The notes below the pieces were generated by a model that searched no databases, was not told the DNA's origin, and saw nothing but the letters and a program-made list of their open reading frames with translations. From Verrucomicrobiaceae bacterium (lineage in GTDB: Bacteria; Verrucomicrobiota; Verrucomicrobiia; Opitutales; Intestinicryptomonadaceae), in the NCBI GenBank assembly GCA_015061955.1, contig SUVO01000001.1, positions 2,233 to 66,232 on the forward strand: 64,000 nucleotides of DNA, read 5' to 3'. Made by a program: the position numbers and the translations under genes. Shown here one piece after another: positions 3,914 through 28,403 of this stretch; within the stretch, counting starts at the first letter, position 1, and every line of letters starts with the position of its first letter.

Positions 3914-5230
<1,317 letters not shown>

Positions 5231-8253: not shown

Positions 8254-8265
8254 AAACTTCGTAAA

Positions 8266-10371: not shown

Positions 10372-10388
10372 AATAGAAAGATAAATAT

Positions 10389-11507
10389 ATGAAAATAAAA
10401 TCACTTATAATAGGAGCATTATCGTTGGTGGTTGCCTCAACCACGTTTGCACGCGATGTTTGGACAGCCGAAGAAGCAAATGCATGGTTTGATAAACAGC
10501 CATATAGAGCAGGGGTGAACTATATTCCAGCATACGCAATTAACGCAATAGAAATTTGGCAGAAAGAAACTTTCAATATCGAAGTTATCGAGAAGGAATT
10601 TGCACTCTTGCAAAAAACAGGTTTCAATGCAATTCGTGTGTTCCTTAATGATTTGGTTGTACACGACGACCCTAAAGGCTTCCTAGAACGCTTTGAGCTT
10701 TTCCTCCAAAAAGCTGATAAATACAACATCGGCGTAATGGTAGTTTTCTTCACAAACGGCGGTAAAGACGACGGGAAGTTAGGTAAACAGCCAGAGCCAG
10801 ATGGCACCCACAATTCAGGTTGGAAAAAACAGCCATCGTACTCAATCTTAGGTGATAAATCTAAATGGGGCTACTTAGAATTTTATGTAAAGACTGTCAT
10901 TAAAGCCCACGCAAAAGACCCACGTATTATTTGTTGGGACATCTTCAATGAACCTGGTAATATCACTAGTGTTCATATAGCAGGCGCTGAGAAAGGTTTA
11001 ATTCAAAAGCGAATTGAATATCTTGAAGATTGTTGCTACGACCTCATCAAAGAAAGTGCAAAGTGGGCTCGTTCTCTCGATCCAATTCAGCCAATTACTT
11101 TTGGTGTTCATCGTTATGACCATACGCCATTGGGTAAAAAGCTTAACGATCTTCAATATGCCGAAAGCGATATTATTTCGTATCACTCGTACGCAAATTT
11201 GTTAATTCAAGCAAATTTTGTAAAAAAGTTGAAGAGATTTAACAAACCATTGATGTGTAAAGAATGGATGGGTCGCAATCGTGGTAGTACGATAAATCCA
11301 ATCTTGGGCTTCCATAAGAAGAATAGAATTTGGTCGTTTATGTTCGGTTTTGTTGCTGGCAAAATAGAAACGTGGCGTCCTTGGAAGTTTGATGAAAATC
11401 CTCTCTCATCTGACGTTTGGTTCCACGATTTATATCATGCCGACCACACTCCATATTGCCCAGAAGAAATTGCTTACATCAAGCGTATTTTACAAGATAA
11501 AAAATGA
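10389..11507 (+). CDS. secreted clan GH-A (GH5-like) glycoside hydrolase, paralog 2 of 3
   Basis: Same architecture as 9259-10371. The first ~75 codons are near-identical at the nucleotide level to paralog 1. Confidence 0.55.
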   Translation: MKIKSLIIGALSLVVASTTFARDVWTAEEANAWFDKQPYRAGVNYIPAYAINAIEIWQKETFNIEVIEKEFALLQKTGFNAIRVFLNDLVVHDDPKGFLERFELFLQKADKYNIGVMVVFFTNGGKDDGKLGKQPEPDGTHNSGWKKQPSYSILGDKSKWGYLEFYVKTVIKAHAKDPRIICWDIFNEPGNITSVHIAGAEKGLIQKRIEYLEDCCYDLIKESAKWARSLDPIQPITFGVHRYDHTPLGKKLNDLQYAESDIISYHSYANLLIQANFVKKLKRFNKPLMCKEWMGRNRGSTINPILGFHKKNRIWSFMFGFVAGKIETWRPWKFDENPLSSDVWFHDLYHADHTPYCPEEIAYIKRILQDKK

Positions 11508-12667
11508 AAATAAAATCATTTTTTTTAACATTCATAGCTTGTATTGTTGCAATATCCTCGTTTGCACGCGATATATGGACACCAGAACAAGCAAATGCGT
11601 GGTACGCAAAACAGCCATTTAGAGCTGGTGTAAATTACATTCCATCGTACGCAATAAATACAATCGAAGTTTGGCAGAAAGAAACATTTAAGCTTGATGT
11701 TTTTGAGAAAGAATTTGCATTGATGGAATCAATAGGCTTCAACGCAATTCGTTTGTTCCTCAATGATCTTGTAGTTAATGACGATCCTAAAGGTTTCCTT
11801 GAACGCTTCGAGCAAGTTTTGAAGGCTGCCGATAAGCATGGGATTGGTGTTATGGTCGTATTTTTTACGAACGGAGGTAGAACAGATGGTACGCTTGGAA
11901 AACAACCTGAACCAGATGGAACGCACAATTCAGGTTGGCGTAGACAGCCTGCATATTCTATTCTGCGAGATAAATCGAAGTGGGGACATCTCGAGTTTTA
12001 TGTTAAAACGGTTGTTGGTGCGTATGCAAAAGACCCACGTATTATTTGTTGGGATGTTTTCAATGAACCAGGTAATATAAAAAGCGATCATATTGTAGGA
12101 GGTGGAAAAGGTTTGACAGAAGCAGATATGGAACATCTGCGTCGTTGTAGCCTCGATTTGGTCAGAGAAAGTGCCAAATGGACGCTTTCGTTTGATCCAA
12201 TTCAACCTATTACGTATTGTTTGTGGTCTCGTACACCGAAGGGCTTTGAGAAAGTTCAGATTGAAAATAGCGATATTCTTTCGTTCCATTCCTATGGTGG
12301 CTTAGGTCAACAAGTTCAACGTTATAAAAAACTGAAGAAGCATAATAGACCTGTTTTATGTACGGAATGGTTGGGGCGTTCTACAGGTAGTACGTTTAAT
12401 CCGATTTTAGAATTCCATAAAGACAATAATATATGGTCGTTTGCTTTTGGCTTTGTTGCTGGAAAAATGGAAACGTGGCGTAATTGGCCAGCTATGGACG
12501 ATTCGGAAATTAGAAGCATATGGTTCCACGATTTGTATCGTGCCGACCATACTCCATATTGCCCAGAAGAAATTGCTTACATAAAGCGAATTTTGAAGGG
12601 CGAAAACGCATGCAAAACTCCTTCTAAAAAGAAAAATAAACCACGCAAAGTCGGTAAATACTTCTAA
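11504..12667 (+). CDS. secreted clan GH-A (GH5-like) glycoside hydrolase, paralog 3 of 3, with a basic C-terminal tail
   Basis: Same motifs (WDVFNEPGN, CTEWLGR). Its start overlaps the paralog 2 stop in an ATGA junction. It ends in a Lys/Arg-rich tail (KTPSKKKNKPRKVGKYF). Confidence 0.55.
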   Translation: MKIKSFFLTFIACIVAISSFARDIWTPEQANAWYAKQPFRAGVNYIPSYAINTIEVWQKETFKLDVFEKEFALMESIGFNAIRLFLNDLVVNDDPKGFLERFEQVLKAADKHGIGVMVVFFTNGGRTDGTLGKQPEPDGTHNSGWRRQPAYSILRDKSKWGHLEFYVKTVVGAYAKDPRIICWDVFNEPGNIKSDHIVGGGKGLTEADMEHLRRCSLDLVRESAKWTLSFDPIQPITYCLWSRTPKGFEKVQIENSDILSFHSYGGLGQQVQRYKKLKKHNRPVLCTEWLGRSTGSTFNPILEFHKDNNIWSFAFGFVAGKMETWRNWPAMDDSEIRSIWFHDLYRADHTPYCPEEIAYIKRILKGENACKTPSKKKNKPRKVGKYF

Positions 12668-12794: not shown

Positions 12795-13976
12795 ATGAAA
12801 AAAATTCTTGCATTAGTTTGTGCAACAGCACTATTTACATCGGCATTCGCTTTAAATGTCAGCGAAGATAAAACTATTGTTAATGGTACAGATACCATCA
12901 ACTTTACAGCACCAAATGTTACCCTTACTATTACTGGTAAATTTGATAAGTTGTGGTATTCGCCACGTGCAAATTTTGGTGATGATTATGTATATACCGA
13001 AGGTGACAAAGTTACAGTAAAGTTGGAATATGGCGCATCTCTTGTATTGGATGCTTCTCAAGGGGGCTTGTTTGGTGGTGATTCAGTTTCTACAAGTAAA
13101 GTTGATATGCATATTACTGGTGGTGGTACAATATCTACAACTCTCGAATCTATTACAACTACAAATAATAGAGGGAAACTCTACTTAGACGCATTTACCG
13201 ATTTTACTAATGCCACATATAACATTGGGTCTGCAACACAACCCACAAATCTTACATTATCAAATGCGTTGGTAGTTAACAAACTTACACTTTCAAAAGG
13301 TTCAGTTTTAACAATGTCTTCCGATGATGATTCTTCGGCAGATATTTCTGTTTTAGGTTCTTCATCAACAATCAATGGGAATTTTGTTCAAACTGCAGGT
13401 AGATACGAGGCATTAAATACAACAACAGTTGTAACTGGTACTCTTGATTTGGCTGTTTCAAAAGGTTTTGTATCACGTTGGTTAACTATTGGTAATGGTT
13501 CTACAATTATTATTCGTGCCAATAATGCAATCATGCAGAGCGAAACAGCATATCGTGTTTTTGGTATGTCTAAAGATGCAGTATCAACATTGAAACTTTA
13601 TGCCGATCAACAGTTCGCTGATTTGTGGTTTGATAATGCTAATACTACTGGAACTTTGAATGCTTATACAAATGGCAATGCGCTTACTTTTACTGGTATA
13701 AATTCAACAGGTACTCTCAATATTTTTATTGAAGAAGATTTTTCGTGGGAAAATGATAAAATCCACTTTACAAATGCAACAGTAGAGAGAGTTGTATCAA
13801 TCTTGGGTACAATTACCATTGGTGATACTGTTATTGATAAATCGTTTTGGGATATTGTAAGCGACGGTAATAAAGGTGTATATGTAAACTTGACTCAAGT
13901 TCCAGAGCCAGCCGAATGGGCTCTCATCTTCGGAGCGATAGCACTCGGCTTCATCGCCTATCGTCGCAGAAAGTAA
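12795..13976 (+). CDS. PEP-CTERM sorting-domain surface protein (Thr/Ser/Asn-rich)
   Basis: Signal peptide, then a low-complexity T/S/N/G-rich body likely forming a beta-helix or beta-solenoid. The C-terminus is VPEPAEW-ALIFGAIALGFIAY-RRRK: a canonical PEP motif, TM helix and basic cluster. Confidence 0.7.
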   Translation: MKKILALVCATALFTSAFALNVSEDKTIVNGTDTINFTAPNVTLTITGKFDKLWYSPRANFGDDYVYTEGDKVTVKLEYGASLVLDASQGGLFGGDSVSTSKVDMHITGGGTISTTLESITTTNNRGKLYLDAFTDFTNATYNIGSATQPTNLTLSNALVVNKLTLSKGSVLTMSSDDDSSADISVLGSSSTINGNFVQTAGRYEALNTTTVVTGTLDLAVSKGFVSRWLTIGNGSTIIIRANNAIMQSETAYRVFGMSKDAVSTLKLYADQQFADLWFDNANTTGTLNAYTNGNALTFTGINSTGTLNIFIEEDFSWENDKIHFTNATVERVVSILGTITIGDTVIDKSFWDIVSDGNKGVYVNLTQVPEPAEWALIFGAIALGFIAYRRRK

Positions 13977-14867: not shown

Positions 14868-15770
14868 TTATTGTTTTTTTACAGCTTTATCAGCAATTTT
14901 TTGGAATCGCTTTGCAATGGCATCTTCCATATTATCTGGTATGTATTTTATTTCGGTAGCAGACTTTTTATACAACGTTGCAAACCACACGCATGCTTGC
15001 AGATATTCTCCATATCTATTTAAGTGAATAGTATCGCTATCTATGTACATATAACCTTTTTTTGATTTTCTCCAGTAATATTTACCAACAACATCTCCAG
15101 CTTGTCTTGGCATATCGGGATATTTATACGACTTCAAGTCTGTTGGCACTACAAATGGTTCTTTTATTGCTTTTCTTGCTAATTGAACTGCTCTGCCTGA
15201 ATAGATTTGTTCTAAGCCCAACTTTTCTGCTGCTTCGGCGTAAGCGCTTTCTAATTTATTATACATTTCTTCTTGCGATAATTTCCATTGTTTCAAACGT
15301 GGGCTATCGGCTCTATACGACCACGTTTGTTGAATATATATTTTTGCTGTTGGGCAGTGTTTTTTTACATAATCAACAATATTTTGAGCATATGGAAAGT
15401 ACGATTCTTTTATATAGCTTTTATGGCTGGCTTGCTGAATTGTTACTATATCCCACTTTTTACTTTGTAAGATTTTCTTGAGGGTTGTTGTACCTCCATG
15501 GTAAATTTGTTTACCTTGTTGCTCTTCTTCTGTGATGTATCTCCAGTGGCGATCCAATTCGCAACCACCGAAGTTTGCAAGTTCTAAATCGAGTTTACAA
15601 CCTTCAACCGAGTTTACAACTTTACTAAAGTATGTGTTTAAGCTCCATGTAAAACTATTGCCTATTGTTAGAACTTTCAGTTCTTGAGCAAACGATAGAA
15701 CGCTTGAGCTAATTAAAAATATAAAAAATAATATATAAATTCTGAATGAATGTTTCATATAGTAAGCCAA
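14868..15770 (-). CDS. secreted SGNH/GDSL-like hydrolase (putative esterase)
   Basis: Signal peptide plus a GNSFT block close to the mature N-terminus (TIGNSFTWS), and the size and composition typical of SGNH hydrolases. The assignment is weak. Confidence 0.35.
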   Translation of the reverse strand: MAYYMKHSFRIYILFFIFLISSSVLSFAQELKVLTIGNSFTWSLNTYFSKVVNSVEGCKLDLELANFGGCELDRHWRYITEEEQQGKQIYHGGTTTLKKILQSKKWDIVTIQQASHKSYIKESYFPYAQNIVDYVKKHCPTAKIYIQQTWSYRADSPRLKQWKLSQEEMYNKLESAYAEAAEKLGLEQIYSGRAVQLARKAIKEPFVVPTDLKSYKYPDMPRQAGDVVGKYYWRKSKKGYMYIDSDTIHLNRYGEYLQACVWFATLYKKSATEIKYIPDNMEDAIAKRFQKIADKAVKKQ

Positions 15771-16005
15771 AATAATATTTCAGAATATGTCAAATTTATA
15801 TTATTATGCTGAATGAAAATTTTTCTTGGTTTATTAGAGATGTATTTCAATGTAGTTTTTACCCTTTTTCTACTATAAAAAAATGTAATTTATATAAAAA
15901 ATGGATTGACTTCTAAAGTATTGTTTTAAATATTAAATATGAAAGCGTTTTTACAATGCTCTTATATGCTTTACAAAAATATCAAAAAAACAAAATAATA
16001 TTATT

Positions 16006-17010
16006 ATGAAAATGAAAAAGTTTATCAACGCTCCTGAAAATCTCACAATTGAATTGCTCGAAGGTTTGCAGGCTGCATATCCTAATACACTTAAACTTGA
16101 AGGCAAGGTAGTTGTACGTGCTAAACCAAAGTCGAAAGACAAGGTTGCTGTTATTACCTTAGGTGGTGCTGGTCATGAACCTGCATTGAGTGGTTTTGTT
16201 GGTTATGGTATGCTTGATGCAAGTGTTGTAGGCGATATTTTTGCAGCTCCTAATGCAATGACTTTGTTAGAAGGATTGCGCAAGTTTAAAGACTATGCTG
16301 GCATTTTGCTCGTAGTTCTCAATCACGCAGGTGATGTAATGAGTGCAAATATGGCTTTGAAAATGGCAGCCCGTGAAAATATCAACGTAAAGAGTATTCT
16401 TGTTGCTGAAGATATTAGTGCTGGCTTAGATTCAGATATTAAAGATCGTCGTGGTTTGGCAGGTTGCATTCCACTCATCAAGGTTGCTGGTGATGCCGCA
16501 GAACAAGGTAAGAGCTTAGACGAGGTTTTGGCTGTTGCTGAAAAATTCAATTCGCGTATAGCTACTTTGGCTGTTGCAATGACTGGTTGTACTCATCCTC
16601 AAAATGGCGACCCTATCGCAGAGTTGGGCGAAGATGAAATGGAAATCGGCATGGGTCAGCACGGCGAAGGTGGTGGTGGCAGAATGGAAGTAAAATCTGC
16701 CGACGAAACTGCAAAGATTATGTTTGGTAATTTGGCAAAGGCTGTTGATTTAAAGGCTGGTGAAAAAGTATTTTTAGTTATCAATGGCACAGGTGCATGT
16801 ACTCCAATGGAAATGGCTATTGTATTTCGTGCATGTTCAAAATTGGCAGAAGAAATGGGCGCTAAAGTTGAATGTGGTATAATTGACGAAATACTCACTG
16901 TTCAAGAAATGGCTGGTTTCCAAATGATATTGTGCGTAGTTGACGATGAGCAATTAAAGGCTCTGAATGCTAAGAGTGGCGCACCATATTGGACTTGTTT
17001 GGGAGAATAA
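16006..17010 (+). CDS. dhaK: dihydroxyacetone kinase, DhaK (DHA-binding) subunit
   Basis: Collinear with DhaK from N-terminus (MKKFINAPENL...) to C-terminus; the Dak1-domain His-containing regions are conserved. Confidence 0.8.
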   Translation: MKMKKFINAPENLTIELLEGLQAAYPNTLKLEGKVVVRAKPKSKDKVAVITLGGAGHEPALSGFVGYGMLDASVVGDIFAAPNAMTLLEGLRKFKDYAGILLVVLNHAGDVMSANMALKMAARENINVKSILVAEDISAGLDSDIKDRRGLAGCIPLIKVAGDAAEQGKSLDEVLAVAEKFNSRIATLAVAMTGCTHPQNGDPIAELGEDEMEIGMGQHGEGGGGRMEVKSADETAKIMFGNLAKAVDLKAGEKVFLVINGTGACTPMEMAIVFRACSKLAEEMGAKVECGIIDEILTVQEMAGFQMILCVVDDEQLKALNAKSGAPYWTCLGE

Positions 17011-17012
17011 AA

Positions 17013-17630
17013 ATGAAAAATCTTACTCTCGAAAATTTAAAGGCAATGTTTTCTGCTGCAGCCGAAGTTATTTCGGCTCAAGAAAAGTATCTTTGTGAGC
17101 TCGATGCAACTTGTGGCGATGGCGATCATGGTGTTGCTATTAAAGGAGCTATTTCTGCCGCAAACGATGCTATTCAAGCTTCGACAAATCTCAAAGACGC
17201 GTTTTTCGATGGTGGTATGATGGCTATGTCGAATTCTAATGGTTCAACAAGTTCAATCTATGGAACTTTGTTAATGGGCGTTTCTGAAGGTATTGATGCT
17301 TCGGCGCAAGAGCTTGATGCTCCATCGCTTGCAAAGGCTTTTGAAGTTGGATTGGCTTCTATGCGTGATATCGTAAAAGGTGATGTTGGCGATAAAACTT
17401 GCTTCGATGCACTCATTCCAGCTATTCAAGCTATGGCAGGTAAATCAAGCGTTGAAGAACTCTTGAACGCTGCAGCACAAGAAGCCGATAAAGGTGCAAA
17501 AAATACTGTAAATTTACAGGCAAAATTCGGTAGAGCCAGAAATTTAGGCGAAAAATCTATCGGCACTCTCGATCCTGGTGCAGTTTCAAATGCAATGATT
17601 TTTGAAGCATTCGCAAAGGCTTTTAAATAA
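17013..17630 (+). CDS. dhaL: dihydroxyacetone kinase, DhaL (ADP-binding) subunit
   Basis: Dak2 domain with a DATCGDGDHG motif. The start is set at the ATG at 17013, which follows a ggaga RBS directly after the dhaK stop. Confidence 0.8.
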   Translation: MKNLTLENLKAMFSAAAEVISAQEKYLCELDATCGDGDHGVAIKGAISAANDAIQASTNLKDAFFDGGMMAMSNSNGSTSSIYGTLLMGVSEGIDASAQELDAPSLAKAFEVGLASMRDIVKGDVGDKTCFDALIPAIQAMAGKSSVEELLNAAAQEADKGAKNTVNLQAKFGRARNLGEKSIGTLDPGAVSNAMIFEAFAKAFK

Positions 17631-17658: not shown

Positions 17659-18537
17659 ATGGCAGACGCAGAAGGAAATATCGACGCAAAAAATTATGGA
17701 ATAGGTGTCGAAACAAATAACGAAGGCTTTTTCTTGAAAGGCTCTGGAAATTTAGATTGGGGCGTAAAGGCTCGCTTGTCTCGTATTTTCAATCCAAAGA
17801 GTGGCAATACTGTTATGTTGGCATTCGACCATGGTTATATTATGGGACCAACAAGTGGTTTGGAACGTATGGATTTATCAATTGTTCCTTTAATTGAGTA
17901 TGCTGATTGCATTATGTGTACTCGTGGTTCGTTGCGTTCGGTTGTTCCACCAACATGTAATAAACCAGTTGCTTTGCGTTTCAGTGCAGGTTCTACAATT
18001 CTCACAGAACTCAACAACGAGTGCTTGGCTGGAATTGAAGATGCTATAAAATTAGATGCGTCGGCACTTGCTCCAATGGTTGCAATTGGTGATCCAAATT
18101 TTGAAGCACTGACAATTAAAAATTTGGCGAAGTGTGTAGACTATACTGCACAGTATGGTATTCCAACATTGGGCGTAACTGCTGTTGGTAAAAATTTGGT
18201 TCGCGATGCTCGTTATCTTGGTTTGGCAACTCGTGTATGTGCTGAAAACGGTGCTACATTCGTAAAAACTTACTACTGCGAAGAAGGTTTTGAGAAGGTT
18301 GTAGCTGGTTGTCCAGTTCCTATCGTTATTGCTGGTGGCAAAAAACTTCCAGAAAAAGATGCTCTCGAGTTGGCTTACAAGGCTATTTCAAGTGGTGCAA
18401 GAGGTGTTGATATGGGAAGAAATATTTTCCAATCGGAAAATCCTGTTGCTATGATAAAAGCAGTCAAGGCTGTTGTACACGAAGGTATGAAGCCAGACGA
18501 AGCGTTTGAGCTTTACAGAAGCGAAGTTAATAAATAA
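17659..18537 (+). CDS. class I aldolase of the DhnA/FbaB/LsrF family
   Basis: 292 aa with a VMLAFDHG block and a (beta/alpha)8-barrel-like composition. Its position downstream of dhaKL fits a fructose-6-phosphate or fructose-bisphosphate aldolase type. Confidence 0.55.
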   Translation: MADAEGNIDAKNYGIGVETNNEGFFLKGSGNLDWGVKARLSRIFNPKSGNTVMLAFDHGYIMGPTSGLERMDLSIVPLIEYADCIMCTRGSLRSVVPPTCNKPVALRFSAGSTILTELNNECLAGIEDAIKLDASALAPMVAIGDPNFEALTIKNLAKCVDYTAQYGIPTLGVTAVGKNLVRDARYLGLATRVCAENGATFVKTYYCEEGFEKVVAGCPVPIVIAGGKKLPEKDALELAYKAISSGARGVDMGRNIFQSENPVAMIKAVKAVVHEGMKPDEAFELYRSEVNK

Positions 18538-18557: not shown

Positions 18558-21500
18558 TTGAAAGGACTGTTTATGAAAAAAATCTTTTTTACATTATTTG
18601 TTGCATTTGCTACATCGCTTTTTGCAACACAAAGTAATGACATAAAAAGCATTGCTGATAAATTATATTCAAAGAAAGACACGTTTTTAGATACGGTCCT
18701 TCAAACCCGTTCAAATTATGCGTCGTGGTTGAAAGCGCAACCCGACGCAAACGCAAATTTGAAATTTGGCGATTGGTATGTATCGCAAGCGTTGGAACGT
18801 TATCGTAAAAATGCTTTAAAGTTTGCTAATCCACAAGAAAATGGTATCGATTTAAAAGCCATTTATGGCAGAGAACCTCTTTGGCGTAAGTATGATATCA
18901 AAGATGGAACATTATTCCCATTGTGTTCTACAAATCATCGTTTGTTGCAAACTTGTATAGCTTATGTGGCTCGTGAAATTACTGCCGATGCCGATACTAA
19001 ATTTTCTTTTACAGTTGGTGCTAGAACAAGTAATGTTATAGATGTATTGCTAAATGGTAAATTTTTGAAAACTATCAAAACTGGCGATGCACAATCGTTT
19101 GAAGTCCCACTAAAAAAGGGTAAAAATATTCTTTCGTTTACTATAAAATATTTGGGTAGAATGAATGAAGATGCATTCTACTTTGTGCCATATACTGATC
19201 CAGCAGTAGAACTTACTGCAAAATTGAGAAAAGATTTCCCAACTTTTTATAACGCCTTAACTTCAATGCGTTATTATTATGCCGAAACTCCAGCTTTGTT
19301 GCCTTTCGATTGGTTTGTTGCCAAAGATAATTCGGTTTCGCACAAAGATGTAATTCAGGGTATGATTGAACATTCGCTATTTTCGGCTGGTAAGTTGGAA
19401 GAACGTTTCAAGAAAATTAAAGACGATACATCTGAAAATGCGTCGGTTGAACGTATAAAGCTTTTGGCAGATGGATTTGCTATCTTGTGTGTAGAGCGCG
19501 AGTTTGGTTATTGCATTAAGAATGTAAGATCTGCAATGGAAGATATCAAAAAAACTTACCCAGATTACGATAAAGACGGAAAACTTTTTGCAGAGCTTGC
19601 CGATTGGGAAAAACGTATGCCAGCTCTCTACAATAGCGTTCTTGAAGATGTAAAATTAAATAAACAATCGTCTTTTGCCGAAGCTAAAAAGTTTAATTCT
19701 TTTGCAACAAAGGCATTGCTTGCAAATCCACTTTTAAAGCAGTATCCACAGTGGGTTATGATTAAGCGTGATAAGGGTTCAAGTCGTTTAGGATTGCCAC
19801 AAAATTGGCAAGGTAATTCTACCTTAGCATGTAATCCTTGGTCTTCTAATAATAAGAGACAACCGAAAGTTTGTGCAACTTATAAAGATGAAATTTACAA
19901 GTTCGATATCACAAAACCACAAGAAAAACAGTTGTTGTTTAAGCCTGCAAAAAACAACATCATTTGCGATTTAGATATATCATTCGATGGTAAGAAAATT
20001 TTGTATTCTACCTTAGACGATAAAATGTATTTCCGCATGGACGAACTCGATACCACATCGGGCAAGACAAAAACTATAACGCCAACAATGCACGAGAAAA
20101 TAGATTATTACGATGGTATTTATTTGCCAGATGATCGCATTTTGTTCTGTTCAACTGCGTGTTGGGTGGGTGTTCCTTGTGTGTCGGGTACAGACTCGGT
20201 TGCAAACCTTTATGTAATGGATCCAAATGCAGGTGATGAAAAAGCTGTTGATGAATCTATACGTCAGCTCACTTTCGAGCAAGATGCCGACTGGATGCCT
20301 GTGTTGATGGAAAATGGCAGAATTATGTATACTCGTTGGGAGTACGTTGACAACTCGCACTATTTCTCGCGTATTCTAATGCATATGAATCCTGATGGCA
20401 CTGCACAATCGTCGTTGTATGGTTCTGTTAGTTATTGGCCAAATTCGCTCTTTTACGCACGTCAAATTCCGAACGACCCAAATAAATTTGTTGGTATTGT
20501 ATCGGGGCACCATGGCGTAGCTCGCACAGGTGAGCTTCATTTGTTCGACATTTCTAAAGGAACAAAAGAAGAACAGGGCAGAGTACATCAGTATCCTTCG
20601 CATGGTCGTAAATATGTTGCAGAAACTAAAGACGAACTTGTGCGTGGTAAATTCCCTCAGATTATCCATCCGTATCCTCTTTCAGAAAAATATATTGTTG
20701 CATCGGTACGTCATCACTTGGCAAATCGTATTGGTTTTGCAGTTTGTTTGATTGATAAATTTGACAACATAATAACATTGCAATCGTTTGACGATAATCA
20801 TCATGCTTTCGAGCCATTGCCATTGCAAGCTCGCCAAAAGCCTGTTGAAATTGCCGATAAAACAAATCCAGATTTAGATTATGGCCATGTGTTCCTTAAC
20901 GATATTTATCAGGGAGATGGCTTGAAAGATGTACCTCGCGGAACTGTAAAATCTTTGAGAATTTTGGAATACCATTATGCTTATCGCGATATGGGTTCGC
21001 ATGCTGTAATTGGTAATGAAGGCTCGTGGGACGTAAAACGTATTCATGGTACTGTTCCAGTTCTTGAAGATGGTTCGGCTATGTTCAAAGTTCCAGCAAA
21101 TCGTCCACTTGCACTTCAACCTTTAGACAAAGATGGTAAGGCATTAGCTTTAATGCGTACATGGTTTACTGTAATGCCTGGTGAAGTTCAAAGTTGTGTA
21201 GGTTGCCACGAAGGACAAGGTATGTCGCCAACTTCAAAGCCTGCATTGGCTTCTCGTAAGGCTCCAACAAAAATTAAACCATTTGTTGCTGGTGTGCGTG
21301 GTTATTCGTTCCATAGAGATGTTCAACCTGTTCTCGATAAATATTGCGTAGGTTGTCATAATGGTGGAAATGAAAAATTACCAAACTTTAAGCGTGGCGT
21401 ACGGGGTTATGCACACTTCCCTAAAGCATACTTAGACTTGGCTAAATTTGTGCGTCGCTCTGGTCCAGAATGTAATCAGAATATGCTTACACCTATGGAA

Positions 21501-22811
21501 TTTAATGCCGACACAAGCGAGCTTATTCATATTTTGAAAAAAGGTCATAAAGGAGTAAAGCTTGATGATCAATCTATGAAAATCCTCATTACATGGATTG
21601 ATATGAACGTCCCATGTTTTGGTACTTGGAAAGAAATAAAAGCAGATATTCCACACAATGGCGATGTAATGCGCAGAAAGTACCTTGCTAAATATGCAAA
21701 TCGTCATGAAGACCAAGATGCAATTACATACGATGGTGGTGTTCAAGAATTTGTTGCACCTGCTCAAGCTAAGAAGCATCCACAGAAAAACCTTAAGGCT
21801 GATAATTTCCCATTCGATAGTGCTACAGCTAAGAAAATGATTGAAAACACAGCTGTAAAAGCTGAAGGCTTTACCGGATTATTTGGTGCTAAGAAAAAAT
21901 TACCATCCGAAATTGAATGCGATGTTGATGGCGTGAAAATGCGTTTTGTACTCGTGCCAGCTGGTAGTTTTGTAATGGGTTCAAATCGTGGTTATTACGA
22001 TGAAGGTCCAGCAAAGATTGTACGTGTTGAAAAACCTTTCTATATGAGTCAGTTTGAAGTGTCGAATTTGCAGTACGCTAAGTTCGATGCCTCGCACAAC
22101 TCTGGATATCACGATAGACAATGGAAAGACCATGTAAATCGTGGCTACATTGCAAACAATCCAAATCAACCAGTTGTTCGTGTAAACTGGAATCAGGCAA
22201 ACGCATATGCAAGATGGTTGTCAGAAAAGGTTGGTGTTAAAGTTTCGTTACCTACCGAAAAACAATGGGAATGGGCTGCACGTGCTGGTACATCGGGCGA
22301 CTTCTGGTTTGGTAAACTCGGTAAAAATTATGGCGATTGCGAAAATTTAGCCGACTTTACTATTCGCAATTTTGCTGTTAATGGGGTAAATCCTAAACCT
22401 CGTGCCGACGAAAGCCCTCTAAACGCTTATACTCCACGCGACGACTTTGCTAACGACGGTCAGCTGGTAGGTTGTGATGTAGGTATGTTTAAACCTAACG
22501 CTTTCGGTTTGTACGATATGCTTGGTAATGTTTCAGAATGGACTGCCGACGATTTCAGCGAAACTCTTTTCGGCAAAAAACTTCAAGACAAAAAAGCAGT
22601 TCGCGGTGGTTCGTGGCGCGATAGAGCTAAACGCAGTAGAGTTACAATGCGTCGCGACTATTACTCTTGGCAGAAAGTTTACAATGTAGGTATTCGCCTC
22701 GTTATTGACGATGTTGAAACTGCAGCAAAAACTTTCGAAACTGCTAAAAAACTCCCAGAATATATCGAACGCGACATTTCTGTGAAAGTCGATAACGTTC
22801 CACACGATTAA
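18558..22811 (+). CDS. large secreted multidomain protein with PSCyt-like CxxCH motifs and a C-terminal FGE-sulfatase-like domain
   Basis: 1417 aa with a signal peptide. Two CxxCH motifs (CVGCHEG at nt 21195-21209; PVLDKYCVGCHNGG at nt 21345-21359) sit in a Planctomycete-cytochrome-c-like context. The C-terminal ~290 aa match the FGE-sulfatase fold (NWNQANAYARWL, YDMLGNVSEWT, RGGSWRD). TTG start at 18558 with an aggagagg RBS; the ATG at 18573 is an alternative. Confidence 0.6.
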   Translation: MKGLFMKKIFFTLFVAFATSLFATQSNDIKSIADKLYSKKDTFLDTVLQTRSNYASWLKAQPDANANLKFGDWYVSQALERYRKNALKFANPQENGIDLKAIYGREPLWRKYDIKDGTLFPLCSTNHRLLQTCIAYVAREITADADTKFSFTVGARTSNVIDVLLNGKFLKTIKTGDAQSFEVPLKKGKNILSFTIKYLGRMNEDAFYFVPYTDPAVELTAKLRKDFPTFYNALTSMRYYYAETPALLPFDWFVAKDNSVSHKDVIQGMIEHSLFSAGKLEERFKKIKDDTSENASVERIKLLADGFAILCVEREFGYCIKNVRSAMEDIKKTYPDYDKDGKLFAELADWEKRMPALYNSVLEDVKLNKQSSFAEAKKFNSFATKALLANPLLKQYPQWVMIKRDKGSSRLGLPQNWQGNSTLACNPWSSNNKRQPKVCATYKDEIYKFDITKPQEKQLLFKPAKNNIICDLDISFDGKKILYSTLDDKMYFRMDELDTTSGKTKTITPTMHEKIDYYDGIYLPDDRILFCSTACWVGVPCVSGTDSVANLYVMDPNAGDEKAVDESIRQLTFEQDADWMPVLMENGRIMYTRWEYVDNSHYFSRILMHMNPDGTAQSSLYGSVSYWPNSLFYARQIPNDPNKFVGIVSGHHGVARTGELHLFDISKGTKEEQGRVHQYPSHGRKYVAETKDELVRGKFPQIIHPYPLSEKYIVASVRHHLANRIGFAVCLIDKFDNIITLQSFDDNHHAFEPLPLQARQKPVEIADKTNPDLDYGHVFLNDIYQGDGLKDVPRGTVKSLRILEYHYAYRDMGSHAVIGNEGSWDVKRIHGTVPVLEDGSAMFKVPANRPLALQPLDKDGKALALMRTWFTVMPGEVQSCVGCHEGQGMSPTSKPALASRKAPTKIKPFVAGVRGYSFHRDVQPVLDKYCVGCHNGGNEKLPNFKRGVRGYAHFPKAYLDLAKFVRRSGPECNQNMLTPMEFNADTSELIHILKKGHKGVKLDDQSMKILITWIDMNVPCFGTWKEIKADIPHNGDVMRRKYLAKYANRHEDQDAITYDGGVQEFVAPAQAKKHPQKNLKADNFPFDSATAKKMIENTAVKAEGFTGLFGAKKKLPSEIECDVDGVKMRFVLVPAGSFVMGSNRGYYDEGPAKIVRVEKPFYMSQFEVSNLQYAKFDASHNSGYHDRQWKDHVNRGYIANNPNQPVVRVNWNQANAYARWLSEKVGVKVSLPTEKQWEWAARAGTSGDFWFGKLGKNYGDCENLADFTIRNFAVNGVNPKPRADESPLNAYTPRDDFANDGQLVGCDVGMFKPNAFGLYDMLGNVSEWTADDFSETLFGKKLQDKKAVRGGSWRDRAKRSRVTMRRDYYSWQKVYNVGIRLVIDDVETAAKTFETAKKLPEYIERDISVKVDNVPHD

Positions 22812-22835: not shown

Positions 22836-23510
22836 ATGAAAAAATTACTTGCAACTATTATATCAATCGTAACACTATTGTTTCTTGGTGCATGTTCTTC
22901 ATGCCCAAAAGGCGAATGTTGCTTTAAATCTCAACCAAAATTAACAAAAGATATGTTTTACAAAGATGGTAAATTCGATCAAGATGCTGCCAAGCAAGCA
23001 TACTTCGATATGATGGAAAAACTCGGTTATCCAATCAGCGATAATCTTCGCAAAAATATGTGGGTAACAGACTTCGCTTTAGGCGATTTTCCTAACGTAG
23101 GTATGGCTGGTATATTTTGGGCTCATGAAAACAAAAATGGCGTTTTTGGTCACGAAATTATCTTATTGCCTAACCAAATGCTCGTTGAACACTGGCACGT
23201 TGCCGGCTTAGGTTTGCCTGCTAAAAACGAATGCTGGCAGGCTCGTGCAGGTAAAACTTACTGCTTTGGGGAAGAGGGCGAAGATGCTTCTAAATATCCA
23301 AACGTAAAAGTTCCAGAAAGCCAGAAGAAATTTATTACTGTAAATAAAGTTGCATGTGCTGATGCTAAAGAAGGTAATGTTGTATGGCTCAATCGCTTAG
23401 AAGCACGTCATTATCAGATTGCTGGTCCAGAAGGTGCAGTTGTAACTGAATATGGTGCATTCCACAGCAACGACAACAATCGCTTCACCAACCCAAAGGT
23501 CGGCTTCTAA
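22836..23510 (+). CDS. hypothetical lipoprotein (224 aa)
   Basis: Lipobox LGACSS after the signal peptide. A His-rich block (HENKNGVFGHEIILLPNQMLVEHWH) hints at a metal-binding or cupin-like fold, but no family could be confirmed. Confidence 0.35.
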   Translation: MKKLLATIISIVTLLFLGACSSCPKGECCFKSQPKLTKDMFYKDGKFDQDAAKQAYFDMMEKLGYPISDNLRKNMWVTDFALGDFPNVGMAGIFWAHENKNGVFGHEIILLPNQMLVEHWHVAGLGLPAKNECWQARAGKTYCFGEEGEDASKYPNVKVPESQKKFITVNKVACADAKEGNVVWLNRLEARHYQIAGPEGAVVTEYGAFHSNDNNRFTNPKVGF

Positions 23511-24032
23511 AACGTGCGAGAGCGCGTTTTCTTTGATGATGAGTTTTTATTTACACTATAAGGCACTTCGTTGAAGTGCCTTTTTTTATTAAATAAACTC
23601 ATCAAAGAAAACGCTTTCGGCTGTTATTTGGTTTCGTATCGCCTCACGTACATAGTACGCTACGGCTCACAAAACACAAATTCCAGCTCGAATCTCGCAC
23701 GTTTTACTTCTTCCAACACATGTCGGTTCTAAACTGATTTTATTTAACCACATTCTCTTTGATGATGAGTTTTTATTTACACTATAAGGCACTTTGATGA
23801 AGTGCCTTTTTTATTAAATAAACTCATCAAATAAAACGCTTTGCCCTCCATTTTGGTTTTAGCTTCGACTGCAGTGCATAGCACAGCAATGCTCGCTAAA
23901 ACGCAAAAGCATCGGGACAATCTCGCACGTTTTTTTATTTCCGTTCCTAAGTTTATCCTAATCCGATTTAGTTAGGCAAAGAAGCTATTGCGAAGCAATC
24001 TTCGCCACTTCTCAACATACAAAAACACGTTT
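23509..24032. repeat. intergenic mosaic of repeat modules (A, E, C-tail, A, B, F) at a convergent junction
   Basis: Module A at 23509-23613 and again at 23753-23838. Module B at 23844-23931. Module F at 23932-24032, shared with 55684-55775. The E and C-tail segments at 23614-23735 are shared with 14120-14165 and 14600-14635. Confidence 0.7.
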
Positions 24033-26244: not shown

Positions 26245-28403
26245 TTGCATTTGTCTGTTATAAAAATACTTTTCATGCACATGGTTAGATTATTGTTTTT
26301 ATTATTCAAGGTTAATCTTGTTTGTTTTTTTGCTACATATTCTTTTGCAACAGCTCAATATACAAATATATTAACTGAAGACTTTGAAAATGGTGGTGGT
26401 AATTTTATAAAATTACTGCAATCTTCAAAATTTCTCAGAGTAGGAAATGAGCATGCTATATCAGGGAAATCATCGTTGATATTAGATTCTACCCAAAGAG
26501 CTGGAGAGTGGTTTTTGTATGCAAATTTTGGTAGAGGGGTAGTAGAAAAAGGCTCCGTTTATGAGGTATCGTTTAAATACGATTTAAAAGTTAGCCAAGC
26601 CCAATCGGCAGATTGTTATTTTGCAATAGCGTCTCCCGAAAAAAAGTTTTATGCAAGAACATGTTTTGCAGTAGCCGAAGGTCAAAAAGATAATGTAAAG
26701 TTTATATTTGTATTACCAGCCGATGCAAAAGAGCCATCTTTTAGAATATTTTCACGCAATCCGTGTCTGTTAGTTATCGACGACTTGCAAATAAAAAAAT
26801 GCAACATAAATATAGATTCATGGATATTCAAAGATGGAGCTTTTATCGGTATGCGTAGAACTCCAATTCACCATAATATGCTCGATTTATCTAATATGGC
26901 ATACTTTTTACCACGCGAAAAGTTCATGCCTTTTATCGATAGATATGGTCAGTATAAACACTCAAATTGGGATTGTAAAATAACTGGCAACGACGCATTT
27001 AAAATATCAATAGAAAAAGAGCAAAAATATAACCAACAAACTTGTGATATTGAAAATAGAGATACTTTAGGAGGCCTTGCAAATTCGTCGTCAAGCTCGC
27101 AAAAATCAGATGGCTTTACAACTTGCAAGGTAGACGGTAAATGGTATTTGCGAACTCCTGAAGGCAATTTATTTTGGTCTGTTGGTATAACGTGTGTAGG
27201 TATGTTTTCTTCTACTCCTATAAATAATAGGGAAGAGTATTTTGAAGAAATCGATAAGCGTTATCTAACTGATGGTCGTGGTTATAAACCTGGAACTTAT
27301 TATTACAATAAACCCGTAAAAAATTATCAGATTATTAAGAAGAATATTGTTGAAAAATACGGAGAAAACGCAGTTGAAAATTATCCACAAATTGTAGGTA
27401 ATAGAATGCGTAAGTGGGGGATAAATACTTGTGGTGCATGGAGCTCAGGCGATGTAATGCGTTCTTCTGGAGTCCCATTTACAGCAATAGCATCAAGTGG
27501 AGGCATACAGAAGTTAAAAACGAAGAAAAAATGTTTGCTTTATGGGGAAATATAGCCGACTACTTTTCACCAAATTTTGCTAAGCAAACAGAAACTAACG
27601 TAGCTAAAATAAAAGATTTATTAGAACATAAAAATTGTATAGGTGCATTTGTTGATAACGAATTGTCTTGGCAAATGAAAGCTGGTATTACAGGTTTATC
27701 GGTATTGAGTTGTCCACCAGAACAACCAGCAAAAATGGTTTTCAAAAATATGCTTGAAAATAAGTATCACGACATTTCAGCACTCAACAATGTGTGGAAA
27801 AGTAAATATCAATCGTGGGACGATTTTCTTAAAACTACAAATTTTGAACCTAAATTTGTAAATGCAAAGTCAGATATTTTAGAATTTGAAGAAGCTTTTT
27901 ATGCAAATTATTTCAAAGTTTGTCGCGATGCCGTAAAAAAAGTGTGTCCTAAGGCATTGTATTTAGGATGTCGCTTTGCCTCGAGAAACCCCTTAGTTGA
28001 GCGTGTAGCTTTCGATTATTGCGATGTTGTAAGCTACAATGCTTACCGTAGAGATACAACGTCGGTAAAATTTCCAAAAAATAGAAAAGATAAACCTGTT
28101 ATAATAGGGGAGTTTCATATTTGTAGAACTGATAAAGGCTCGCCATATGGAGGCTTGTTAGAAGTAAGAAATGCAAAACTTTCAGCCGAAGCTTATTATA
28201 AATATATGAAATCGGCAGCGGAAAATCCTGCAATAGTTGGTGCCCATTGGTTTCAATGGTTTGATATGGCCATGACTGGTAGAGCCGATGGTGCGAATGC
28301 TTCGTGTGGATTTGTAAGTGTTGTTGATGAACCAGATTACACTTTAATTGAGGCATCTCGAAAATTTGCCGAAGATATTTATAAAATAAGAATGGCAAAA
28401 TAG
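26245..28403 (+). pseudogene. large secreted glycoside hydrolase gene interrupted by a single-nucleotide frameshift
   Basis: Two overlapping ORFs: 26245-27555 in frame 1 and 27414-28403 in frame 0. Each carries a plausible protein sequence only on its own side of about nt 27500-27531. The switch maps to the A-tracts at 27516-27520 and 27526-27531. N-terminal beta-sandwich (CBM-like) region and C-terminal TIM-barrel region. Confidence 0.5.

Follow-up and report, generated by a model that had tools for sequence, protein, structure and literature searches.

The fourth gene of a five-gene operon in a gut Opitutales bacterium, a glycan-degrading host, encodes an exported protein in which a unit resembling the alpha subunit of hydrazine synthase (HZS-alpha), carrying two CxxCH motifs, is fused to a C-terminal domain with the fold of the formylglycine-generating enzyme (FGE). 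On the best reading, the protein is neither an FGE nor a hydrazine synthase. The chances appear about even that it is a periplasmic two-heme enzyme of the HZS-alpha superfamily, fitted with lectin-like modules, that works together with an exported cupin on a carbohydrate-derived substrate, leading to phosphorylation in the cytoplasm and to DHAP. Within the window (the whole 64-kb stretch of DNA that was analysed), the gene and its parts are arranged as follows:

18573–22811, + strand: gene for the exported HZS-alpha-like/FGE-fold fusion, 1412 aa (ORF list, translation)
18573–18629, + strand: predicted Sec-type signal peptide, MKKIFFTLFVAFATSLFA/TQ (visible in the translated sequence)
18645–19217, + strand: N-terminal beta-sandwich, boundaries approximate (family profile, hhalign)
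19218–19772, + strand: helical linker ending in a conserved ALLANPLL motif (conservation in homologue alignments)
19773–20807, + strand: beta-propeller, TolB-like/HZS-alpha N-terminal type
20940–21212, + strand: HZS_alpha "middle" domain with heme motif 1 (Pfam PF18582)
21195–21209, + strand: CxxCH motif 1, C875-V-G-C878-H879 (sequence, homologue alignments, profile alignment to HZS-alpha)
21285–21707, + strand: all-helical C-terminal cytochrome c-type domain (phmmer, profile alignment, helices in the model)
21345–21359, + strand: CxxCH motif 2, C925-V-G-C928-H929 (sequence, homologue alignments, profile alignment to HZS-alpha)
21945–22703, + strand: C-type-lectin-like domain with the FGE fold, PvdO/PorK type, catalytic Cys pair missing

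The open reading frame extends on the forward strand from an alternative TTG start at 18558 to 22811 (ORF list). The ATG at 18573 is the likely start, giving 1412 aa, because an identical 1412-aa protein exists in the database (P0001) and the N-termini of the homologues all read MKK. The N-terminus, MKKIFFTLFVAFATSLFA/TQ, has the form of a typical Sec signal peptide, in agreement with the original prediction of a secreted protein; the attachment of heme c requires that export take place first.

Residues ~400–1045 constitute a complete HZS-alpha-like unit, which begins with the beta-propeller that had been anticipated. Pfam HZS_alpha (PF18582) matches aa 790–880 with an E of 8.2e-33, and profile alignment places this middle domain on HZS-alpha residues 485–571. 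The cytochrome domain was matched by phmmer to 5c2v_A (E 4e-5), and weakly to Cytochrome_CBB3. When a profile of the core was compared with the PDB, hydrazine synthase alpha was the sole match (5c2v_A, E 1.7e-17), with both heme sites aligned. The same structure was the best Foldseek match (E 2.4e-24; 748 columns aligned, target length 768 residues) of an AlphaFold model covering aa 401–1412 (pLDDT 91.1, pTM 0.90), which contains no hemes. The heme region was initially thought to be of the PSCyt type, an assignment that has to be abandoned; Pfam PSCyt1 gave no match to the isolated heme segment even at E<=10, PF18582 being found in its place, and the stretch RDVQPVLDKYCVGCH, taken earlier as PSCyt context, aligns with RDIQPILDAKCAMCH, the site of heme alpha-II in HZS-alpha.

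The two CxxCH motifs, CVGCH at aa 875–879 and again at aa 925–929, lie at exactly the nucleotides first predicted for them, and their reading as genuine heme-c attachment motifs was upheld. C875, C878, and H879, together with C925, C928, and H929, show no variation among the full-length homologues, whether 24 or 119 of them are aligned, and among the ORFs of 100 aa or more, taken in all six frames of the window, there is no other CxxCH. By profile alignment, motif 1 coincides with the heme alpha-I site of HZS-alpha, without its Tyr591-type ligand, and the domain of motif 2 is equivalent to that of heme alpha-II; an invariant H992 in the cytochrome domain is a candidate sixth heme ligand. We infer that both sites are occupied by heme. 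At 16 loci of relatives, a fused ResB-CcsA cytochrome c synthase (CcsBA) is encoded within the cluster, and thioredoxin-like genes are present at others. The motifs might be incidental, and the protein a binding or structural component of the cell envelope that carries no heme, given that FGE-fold proteins of the PorK/GldK type are structural and that the 64-kb window contains no cytochrome c maturation gene. However, two motifs were observed where the composition of the protein predicts 0.0066 by chance, and this figure, the invariance of both motifs, their alignment with the two HZS-alpha heme sites, and the dedicated CcsBA render such a protein barely credible.

The closest characterized relative is HzsA of the anammox bacterium Kuenenia stuttgartiensis (PDB 5C2V), with which the fusion shares a propeller, a middle domain with a CxxCH heme, and a helical domain with the second; the sequence around both heme motifs aligns, and relatives of the fusion are often encoded beside a beta-gamma homologue. 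Unlike HzsA, to which it is ~17% identical, the fusion has ~400 extra N-terminal residues and the ~300-aa FGE-fold domain at its C-terminus, and it is found in a gut glycan degrader, in a context of sugar metabolism and not of the anammox pathway. The structural homology of the whole unit, and the fused HZS beta-gamma homologue adjoining the gene in many relatives, would suit nitrogen chemistry as in hydrazine synthase, in which hydroxylamine, NO, or ammonia would be detoxified or an N-N bond formed, jointly with a beta-gamma partner from another part of the genome. Such chemistry is nevertheless very unlikely: motif 1 reads CVGCH-E-G-Q-G-M and offers no counterpart to Tyr591, the ligand contained in "CSGCHYGSY," the special environment of heme alpha-I thus being absent; the NCBIfam hydrazine_alpha model gave 44.7 bits (cutoff 800); the conserved neighbors are genes for a kinase, an aldolase, and an isomerase of sugar type, and not hao or hdh; and the host is a glycan-degrading member of the gut Opitutales. 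The Tyr591-type ligand is likewise absent from other non-anammox HZS homologues (PMC12758564). These HzsA/HzsBC homologues, described as clades I–IV from Planctomycetota, Desulfobacterota, and others (Hagglund et al., 2025; PMC12758564), resemble the present family as uncharacterized periplasmic heme proteins with co-located alpha and fused beta-gamma genes and canonical heme pockets, but the report mentions no FGE-fold fusion, no linkage to DhaKL, LsrF-type, or cupin genes, and no carriers among gut Opitutales or Bacteroidales.

At the C-terminus, Pfam FGE-sulfatase (PF03781) matches aa 1125–1377 (E 4.5e-46), and VRGGSWRDRAKRSRV stands where true FGEs hold their two catalytic, copper-binding cysteines, aligning with the cysteine-free VRGGSWKDVARFIRS of PorK; the FGE fold without a catalytic pair was thus correctly foreseen. 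The term "cysteine-less" applies to this pair but not to the domain, which contains C1256 and C1301, neither of them a cysteine in the family consensus. The nearest structures are PvdO (pyoverdine maturation, PDB 5HHA), TvpA, PorK, and SUMF2. These proteins, and GldK, are free-standing or have other partners, whereas the domain here is fused to a two-heme HZS-alpha-like enzyme. Orthology with PvdO was rejected, as the NCBIfam PvdO model gave 99.8 bits against a cutoff of 500.

The FGE-fold domain looks non-catalytic, but it could be catalytic instead of a binding module. It would then be a periplasmic oxidase similar to PvdO, acting on a small molecule or a peptide, with the two-heme part serving as its electron sink or wire. 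This arrangement seems unlikely, as the propeller and middle domain are conserved at least as strongly as the FGE-fold domain. The invariant residues of the propeller include C536, WEY (589–591), H596, MNPDG (605–609), and GHHG (645–648), and the three motifs among them would be unexpected in a mere wire. Moreover, paralogues have an F5/8-type-C domain in place of the FGE-fold domain or are without the latter, and TvpA, PorK, and SUMF2 are binding or structural proteins; for PvdO, no catalytic residues are defined. Heme-dependent sulfatase maturation, in which exported sulfatases would have a Cys or Ser turned into formylglycine with hemes in place of the copper centre of classical FGEs, finds some encouragement in the fold and in the distribution of the family among Planctomycetota, Verrucomicrobiota, Kiritimatiellota (including Pontiella), and Bacteroidota, all of them sulfatase-rich. 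It is still highly improbable, since the catalytic Cys pair is absent, the nearest structures are non-FGE members of the fold, the conserved partners are genes of sugar metabolism, and no sulfatase gene was present among the annotated neighbors, whether in the window or at the related loci that were inspected.

The N-terminal beta-sandwich has no Pfam match, but the profile of its family weakly matches sugar-binding jelly-roll domains, both in a sialate O-acetylesterase (E 1.5e-4) and in GH2 enzymes, while hhalign paired it (97% probability) with the N-terminus of a relative bearing NPCBM domains. It is probably a galactose-binding-domain-like module of the carbohydrate-binding type. That relative is from the gut, and a Sedimentisphaerales locus encodes three alpha paralogues, one with an F5/8-type-C domain; on this evidence, the accessory modules belong to carbohydrate-binding types and can be exchanged for one another. 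The fusion, automatically named "SUMF1/EgtB/PvdO family nonheme iron enzyme," was found in 97 of 106 long close representatives. Its cultivable carriers include Intestinicryptomonas porci and Puniceicoccaceae Marseille-Q1082. The initial statement that no described system with this fusion was known agrees with our search of the literature, which found neither a paper describing it nor an experiment or paper tying any family member to a reaction, but in the sequence databases the fusion is abundant.

The remaining features of the operon are:

15970–15999, + strand: strongest promoter-like match ahead of dhaK, weakly supported (10/12 positions match)
16006–17010, + strand: DhaK-type kinase subunit (Dak1), opening the operon (Pfam Dak1, E 9e-96)
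16989–17630, + strand: DhaL-type kinase subunit (Dak2) (Pfam Dak2, E 4e-36)
17659–18537, + strand: LsrF-type DhnA-family aldolase/thiolase (NCBIfam NF006081, Pfam DeoC)
22836–23510, + strand: exported cupin (lipoprotein signal), related to D-lyxose/D-mannose isomerases (PDB matches, ligand alignment)
23560–23582, + strand: terminator-like hairpin, 10-bp stem and T run, closing the five-gene operon (consensus match only)

The genes thus run dhaK, dhaL, aldolase/thiolase, fusion, and cupin, with gaps of 24–35 nt between operon genes and a strong hairpin 3′ of the last; promoter-like sites in the region were no more numerous than expected from shuffled sequence. The first product falls in the NCBIfam DhaK family, and the second scored 133 bits on the DhaL model, slightly below its cutoff of 138. 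The aldolase matches NF006081 (LsrF) over its full length (444 bits, cutoff 297), cluster aldolases scoring 444–465 bits. The cupin, matched in the PDB by 7nzo (E 4.8e-13) and 2y0o (E 9.6e-12), retains all four metal ligands of the D-lyxose isomerases (HxH, E, and H align), and in almost every lineage examined it carries a signal of the lipoprotein or Tat type. Neither a beta-gamma homologue nor CcsBA is encoded in the window, and the surroundings of the operon lack a transporter gene. The host is a bacterium of the gut, and nothing points to a particular electron acceptor or oxidant.

The original prediction saw no functional hint in the position of the gene downstream of dhaKL and the aldolase, a view that was not borne out, as this linkage and the cupin are kept across phyla in several gene orders. 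DhaK, DhaL, the LsrF-type aldolase/thiolase, and the exported cupin are encoded beside the fusion in at least five lineages of three phyla (<70% mutual identity), including Phycisphaerales MAGs, Gemmataceae MAGs, and contigs from the human gut that cluster with a MAG labelled Parabacteroides. Dak1, Dak2, DeoC, and cupin genes flank the fusion gene in about 20 loci of Opitutales; the cupin adjoins it in 43 loci, and when the search was begun independently from the cupin, the fusion gene reappeared in two of three neighborhoods. Gene order varies from lineage to lineage, so that the set is unlikely to have been simply inherited as a single block. Other lineages add an IclR regulator, the dedicated CcsBA, and the fused beta-gamma homologue, which matches HZS beta at E 2e-29 and HZS gamma at E 4e-21. 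A small protein of ~105 aa, absent from the window, also accompanies the cluster aldolase in other lineages; no similarity was detected to LsrG, Pfam, NCBIfam, or PDB entries. About half of the sampled lineages, among them one 6-Mb genome and one Pirellulales MAG, lack every partner gene in the flanking sequence that was available, and the linkage is therefore frequent, not universal.

Two known systems offer parallels. In the Lsr pathway for autoinducer-2, a kinase (LsrK), then an isomerase (LsrG), and then a thiolase (LsrF) act in succession to yield DHAP and acetyl-CoA. The cluster resembles it in that its aldolase passes the LsrF equivalog model and is accompanied by a kinase and, in other lineages, by the ~105-aa protein; it differs in having a kinase of the DhaK/DhaL type (not LsrK), no Lsr transporter, and periplasmic heme and cupin proteins attached. 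Periplasmic quinohemoprotein and polyol dehydrogenases feed DhaK, as in the conversion of glycerol to dihydroxyacetone in Gluconobacter. Here the analogy is functional only: an extracytoplasmic enzyme of propeller and cytochrome c would supply a ketose-type product to a Dak-type kinase, but there is no sequence relationship, the redox centres of the fusion are c-type hemes in an HZS-alpha scaffold, and no PQQ-dependent dehydrogenase was among the best structural matches.

If the fusion is indeed such a periplasmic two-heme enzyme, heme 1, at the interface of the propeller and middle domain, would be the reaction centre and heme 2 an electron relay, with electrons passing, in many lineages, to or from the co-encoded fused HZS beta-gamma partner (a MauG/peroxidase-like two-heme protein). 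We further infer a carbohydrate-type substrate, which would be held by the two lectin-like modules. The heme enzyme and the metal-cupin isomerase would first act, within the periplasm, on a glycan-derived compound and turn it into a small molecule that, like dihydroxyacetone, ends in a hydroxymethyl ketone. This molecule would then be imported and phosphorylated by DhaKL, and the LsrF-type enzyme would split the phosphorylated product into DHAP and an acyl or aldehyde fragment. The gene cluster looks like a periplasm-to-cytoplasm route for sugar-type breakdown that is common to several phyla.

The fusion gene, which joins a unit resembling HzsA, the alpha subunit of anammox hydrazine synthase (HZS), to a C-terminal domain with the fold of the formylglycine-generating enzyme (FGE), lies in an operon whose intergenic gaps measure 24-35 nt:

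16006-17010, plus strand: dhaK, upstream of the fusion gene
16989-17630, plus strand: dhaL, upstream of the fusion gene
17659-18537, plus strand: DeoC-family (LsrF-type) gene (NCBIfam LsrF, 444 bits against a cutoff of 297)
18558-22811, plus strand: fusion gene, as delimited in the ORF list of the window
21195-21209, plus strand: first CVGCH motif of the fusion protein, residues 875-879
21345-21359, plus strand: second CVGCH motif, residues 925-929
22836-23510, plus strand: 224-aa cupin ORF, downstream of the fusion gene
23560-23582, plus strand: strong hairpin with T run, after the cupin gene

The gene-free stretch following the cupin gene (23527-23942) carries a tandem duplication of ~226 nt in two copies that are 85-95% identical, each with a strong 10-bp hairpin and T run (23560-23582; 23786-23808) lying within a longer, imperfect palindrome. 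The arrangement could represent a small repeat element or a terminator that works in both directions and has been duplicated. Upstream of the operon, a DUF4886 gene is encoded divergently (14868-15770, minus strand), and a homologue of it lies upstream in eight related Opitutales loci.

The ATG at 18573 is most likely the start of the fusion gene, giving a product of 1412 aa, because a public collection holds an identical 1412-aa protein and close homologues begin with MKK. The N-terminus (MKKIFFTLFVAFATSLFA/TQ) is predicted to be a standard Sec signal peptide. The two CxxCH motifs that had been placed at nucleotides 21195-21209 and 21345-21359 were confirmed at exactly these positions; they are the only ones in the six-frame ORFs of at least 100 aa in the window, and from the composition of the protein only 0.0066 such motifs would be expected by chance. 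All six motif residues are invariant among 24, and again among 119, aligned full-length homologues. Given this invariance and the low chance expectation, the motifs are real and under selection.

The original prediction had assigned the heme region to the planctomycete-type cytochromes. This identity was dropped, as Pfam found no match to PSCyt1 (PF07635) in the whole fusion protein at E<=1, in isolated residues 895-1030 at E<=10, or across 24 homologues; what matched instead was HZS_alpha (PF18582), the middle domain of the HZS alpha subunit, at residues 790-880 (E 8e-33). At the second motif, Pfam gave a weak class-I cytochrome c signal below its cutoff (Cytochrome_CBB3, E 0.0018-0.009). An AlphaFold model of residues 401-1412, built on the 119-sequence alignment, was confident (pLDDT 91.1, pTM 0.90), and in a Foldseek search of the PDB with it, HzsA of Kuenenia stuttgartiensis (5c2v_A) ranked first (E 2.4e-24). 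As the alignment ran to 748 columns against a 768-residue target, the whole HZS-alpha unit is present, comprising the propeller, the middle domain and the C-terminal heme domain. The same chain was the sole PDB match of a core profile built from 30 sequences (E 1.7e-17). In the profile alignment, motif 1 (CVGCHEGQGM) falls on CSGCHYGSY, the heme alpha-I site of HZS, and motif 2 (RDVQPVLDKYCVGCH) on RDIQPILDAKCAMCH, the heme alpha-II site, so that the sequence context once read as PSCyt is that of heme alpha-II. The invariant histidine H992 may be the sixth ligand of heme 2.

Like HzsA, the fusion protein thus has a beta-propeller, a middle and a C-terminal domain, the last two each with one CxxCH motif. 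In HzsA, however, the proximal ligand of heme alpha-I is Tyr591, four residues after the CxxCH histidine, which is itself diverted to a zinc ion, whereas a ligand of the Tyr591 type is missing at motif 1 of the fusion protein. A 2025 survey of HZS-alpha homologues from outside the anammox bacteria (Hagglund et al.; PMC12758564) reports that others of them also have no Tyr591 ligand. The genetic setting differs as well: anammox HZS is co-encoded with its beta and gamma subunits, hdh and hao-like genes, whereas the neighbours in the window are sugar-metabolism and housekeeping genes. With the heme ligand missing and the gene context wrong, a true hydrazine-synthase role was set aside; nitrogen chemistry of the HZS type, against which also stands a score of 44.7 bits, from a partial match only, where the NCBIfam hydrazine_alpha equivalog has its cutoff at 800, is regarded as very improbable.

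The C-terminal domain matched FGE-sulfatase (PF03781) in Pfam with an E-value of 4.5e-46, and Foldseek returned TM-scores of ~0.65 to FGE structures. The two catalytic cysteines with which FGE binds copper lie in a C-terminal GGS-x-x-C-x4-C segment (C336 and C341 in the human enzyme). In the fusion protein this segment, GGSWRDRAKRSRV / VRGGSWRDRAKRSRV, is devoid of cysteine and lines up with PorK, which is cysteine-free too, and the family consensus GGSWxDRPKRAR, in both the 24- and the 119-sequence alignments, is likewise without the catalytic pair. The earlier description of the domain as cysteine-less therefore holds for this pair, but not literally, since C1256 and C1301 are present; neither belongs to the family consensus. 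The domain is accordingly best read from its sequence as an FGE fold without FGE chemistry. Proteins of this fold that lack the cysteines, such as PvdO and PorK, were already known, and ToxD, CalU17 and EgtB rank after the nearest structural neighbours. FGE acts on the CxPxR motif of sulfatases, but the neighbours of the fusion gene that were inspected included no sulfatase gene; as the cysteine pair is also absent, a role in sulfatase maturation was set aside, and a heme-dependent sulfatase maturase is given very little probability on the same two grounds. That the domain holds a PvdO-like catalytic site for which the hemes serve only as a wire is unlikely, though a more serious proposition. 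Neither the NCBIfam PvdO equivalog nor the pyoverdine gene context, by which a dihydropyoverdine dehydrogenase is recognized, was found for the fusion protein. Database relatives that bear a name are labelled either "SUMF1/EgtB/PvdO family nonheme iron enzyme" or "formylglycine-generating enzyme"; the first of these, assigned automatically, misleads for the fusion proteins.

Within the N-terminal 400 residues, Pfam found no match, and BLASTP of this region against a gut relative bearing two Pfam NPCBM domains was not significant. The signals obtained came from profile methods only: the family profile gave weak but consistent matches to the sugar-binding jelly-rolls of a sialate O-acetylesterase (E 1.5e-4) and of GH2 enzymes, and hhalign paired the region with the N-terminus of the NPCBM-bearing relative at 97% probability. 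In a Sedimentisphaerales MAG, one paralogue carries an F5/8-type-C domain in its place. Together, the jelly-roll matches, the NPCBM relative and this paralogue are suggestive of accessory modules that are interchangeable and of carbohydrate-binding types. The protein as a whole is an exported HZS-alpha-like scaffold for two hemes, bearing apparently lectin-type accessory modules and an FGE fold that has lost its catalytic residues.

Searched with the full fusion protein, the database yielded 397 relatives at E<=1e-5, and PF18582 and PF03781 occur together in 120 of 120 among the matches listed. Named carriers belong to the Planctomycetota, Phycisphaerales, Pirellulales, Sedimentisphaerales and Hydrogenedentes, and genome loci add the gut Opitutales, the source lineage of the window, in which the best matches are uncultured Opitutales, Coraliomargarita sp. 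CAG:312, Ca. Merdousia, Puniceicoccaceae Marseille-Q1082 and Intestinicryptomonas porci. Further loci lie in Kiritimatiellia (including Pontiella), Akkermansiaceae, Sumerlaeota, Anaerolineales, and MAGs labelled Bacteroidales and Parabacteroides. An exhaustive HMMER search with the HZS-like core recovered 5006 representative proteins at E<=1e-3, 2886 at E<=1e-10 and 1195 at E<=1e-30; among the 149 closest, 118 have exactly two CxxCH motifs and 107 carry the FGE-fold domain (97 of the 106 with at least 1000 aa). The fusion is old, stable, widespread and unstudied, and literature searches found no paper describing it or its multi-phylum cluster. Its parts are of known kinds.

The block of Dak, DeoC, fusion and cupin genes is kept in ~20 Opitutales loci, and distant relatives (37-43% identity) are elsewhere flanked by the same genes in differing orders. 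Such linked loci outside the Opitutales include a 4-Mb metagenomic contig, a Gemmataceae MAG, a JGI metagenome contig, a Phycisphaerales MAG in which the two halves are divergently arranged, and a large group of human-gut contigs that clusters with a Parabacteroides-labelled MAG. When lineages were defined by clustering the central segment at 70% identity (n=32), the Dak/DeoC/cupin linkage was seen in at least 5 of the 32, and about half had no partner gene within the available flanks. Seeding independently from the cupin retrieved the fusion gene in two of three neighbourhoods, the third, on an I. porci-type contig, being a Dak1-Dak2-DeoC-cupin arrangement without it. In I. porci, a cultured isolate (loci L012 and L129), the system is split: the Dak1-Dak2-DeoC-cupin operon lacks the heme gene, and the fusion gene occupies a separate locus next to an IclR gene and a divergent homologue of beta-gamma.

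The cupin itself (22836-23510) had no Pfam match. It is a lipoprotein with an LFLGAC lipobox and resembles D-lyxose/D-mannose isomerases (PDB 7nzo, E 4.8e-13; 2y0o, E 9.6e-12); its EHWH, KNE and RHY segments align to the HxH...E...H metal-ligand positions of those enzymes. Isomerase cupins of this kind are normally cytoplasmic and export signals on them are unusual, yet such signals were found in nearly all lineages examined, as a lipobox in the Opitutales and gut contigs and as a twin-arginine signal in Planctomycetota-type loci. These signals place the activity of the cupins outside the cytoplasm, together with the heme protein. The fusion gene is thus in conserved linkage with genes for an exported homologue of metal-cupin isomerases, a DhaKL kinase and an LsrF-type aldolase/thiolase.

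At other loci, cytochrome c maturation genes and the gene of a beta-gamma partner of the MauG/peroxidase type are linked as well. A fused homologue of HZS beta and gamma (5c2v_B, E 2e-29; 5c2v_C, E 4e-21) was found in 28 loci, an IclR regulator in 27, a ~105-aa protein in 18, a fused ResB-CcsA cytochrome c synthase (CcsBA) in 16, a Mal-s-1-like beta-propeller in 16 and a chorismatase/RidA-like protein in 15. The 64-kb window holds no homologue of beta-gamma, which adjoins the relatives in other lineages, nor of CcsBA, the ~105-aa protein or the chorismatase/RidA-like protein. The ~105-aa protein, without a match in Pfam, NCBIfam or the PDB, looks by eye glyoxalase/VOC-like; the positions for it and for a 367-aa chorismatase (FkbO/Hyg5)/RidA-like protein are 7416-8516 and 15979-16290 of locus L094 and 4260-4580 of locus L043. 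A Sedimentisphaerales MAG (L125, 1170-14114) carries three consecutive HZS_alpha-domain genes and, after them, a single beta-gamma homologue; of the three, one has an F5/8-type-C domain, another the FGE-fold domain, and the remaining one lacks both. That three alpha genes precede a single homologue suggests that several alpha-type subunits share one beta-gamma partner.

That these related clusters include a dedicated cytochrome c synthase argues strongly, if indirectly, for heme attachment at the CxxCH motifs. With its export signal and invariant motifs, the fusion protein of the window, where CcsBA is lacking, is a candidate c-type cytochrome with covalently bound heme. That the motifs are incidental features of a structural protein is contradicted by their invariance, the HZS-alpha homology and the CcsBA linkage, and next to no weight is placed on it.

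Elsewhere in the window, genes for GH92, alpha-L-rhamnosidase, arabinofuranosidase and GH5-like enzymes fit a glycan-degrading lifestyle. Three consecutive paralogues of ~370-390 aa (9259-12667) have weak GH5 or GH2-TIM-barrel matches. After them comes a gene (12795-13976) for a 393-aa protein that bears a PEP-CTERM sorting signal. A CBM_4_9-type ORF (26245-27555) overlaps a GH42-like ORF (27414-28403) by 142 nt, and in an Opitutales MAG (L006, 755-7139) a second fusion-gene paralogue has homologues of the two ORFs immediately upstream. Rfam and tRNA scans of positions 1-64000 gave no tRNA gene and no Rfam family at the gathering threshold.

In the mechanism proposed, heme 1, lying where the propeller meets the middle domain, would be the reaction centre, as in HZS-alpha, and heme 2 would exchange electrons with the beta-gamma hemes or some other carrier. 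A carbohydrate-type substrate would be gripped by the accessory modules, and the heme enzyme would, jointly with the cupin, yield a compound with a dihydroxyacetone-like end, which DhaKL would phosphorylate and the LsrF-type enzyme then convert to DHAP and an acyl or aldehyde fragment. This route would parallel autoinducer-2 breakdown, in which a kinase, an isomerase and a thiolase act in turn. The general picture of an exported heme enzyme and cupin feeding a DhaKL/LsrF-type route is given about an even chance, and the specific substrates, be they autoinducer-2-like diketones, deoxy-pentodiuloses, 1,5-anhydro sugars or polyols, are a guess. More tentatively, and at rather less than even chances, the fusion protein, beta-gamma, exported cupin, CcsBA and DhaKL/LsrF-type enzymes may form a self-contained, horizontally mobile and hitherto unrecognised catabolic system, in which an HZS-like heme complex would act outside the cytoplasm on a glycan-derived compound, by redox chemistry that is possibly driven by peroxide. 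If so, its hosts would be anaerobic glycan degraders, human gut bacteria included; it would be the first function assigned within the non-anammox HZS-like superfamily (~1200 representative clusters at E<=1e-30), and it would reveal the type of enzyme from which anammox hydrazine synthase evolved.

Hydrazine synthase has been treated as an evolutionary oddity of anammox, with non-anammox relatives of no known function. A large branch of these relatives is a stable FGE-fold fusion that occurs, across at least three phyla, in glycan degraders from the gut and the environment and is repeatedly tied to an exported sugar-isomerase-like cupin, DhaKL, an LsrF-type thiolase, HZS beta-gamma and sometimes its own cytochrome c synthase. 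Since at least two carriers, Intestinicryptomonas porci and Puniceicoccaceae Marseille-Q1082, are cultivated, its function is directly testable. The fusion and its cluster offer a concrete entry point to the evolutionary origin of hydrazine synthase and, with cultivated gut carriers at hand, give the very large, uncharacterised family of its relatives a first functional context that can be tested.
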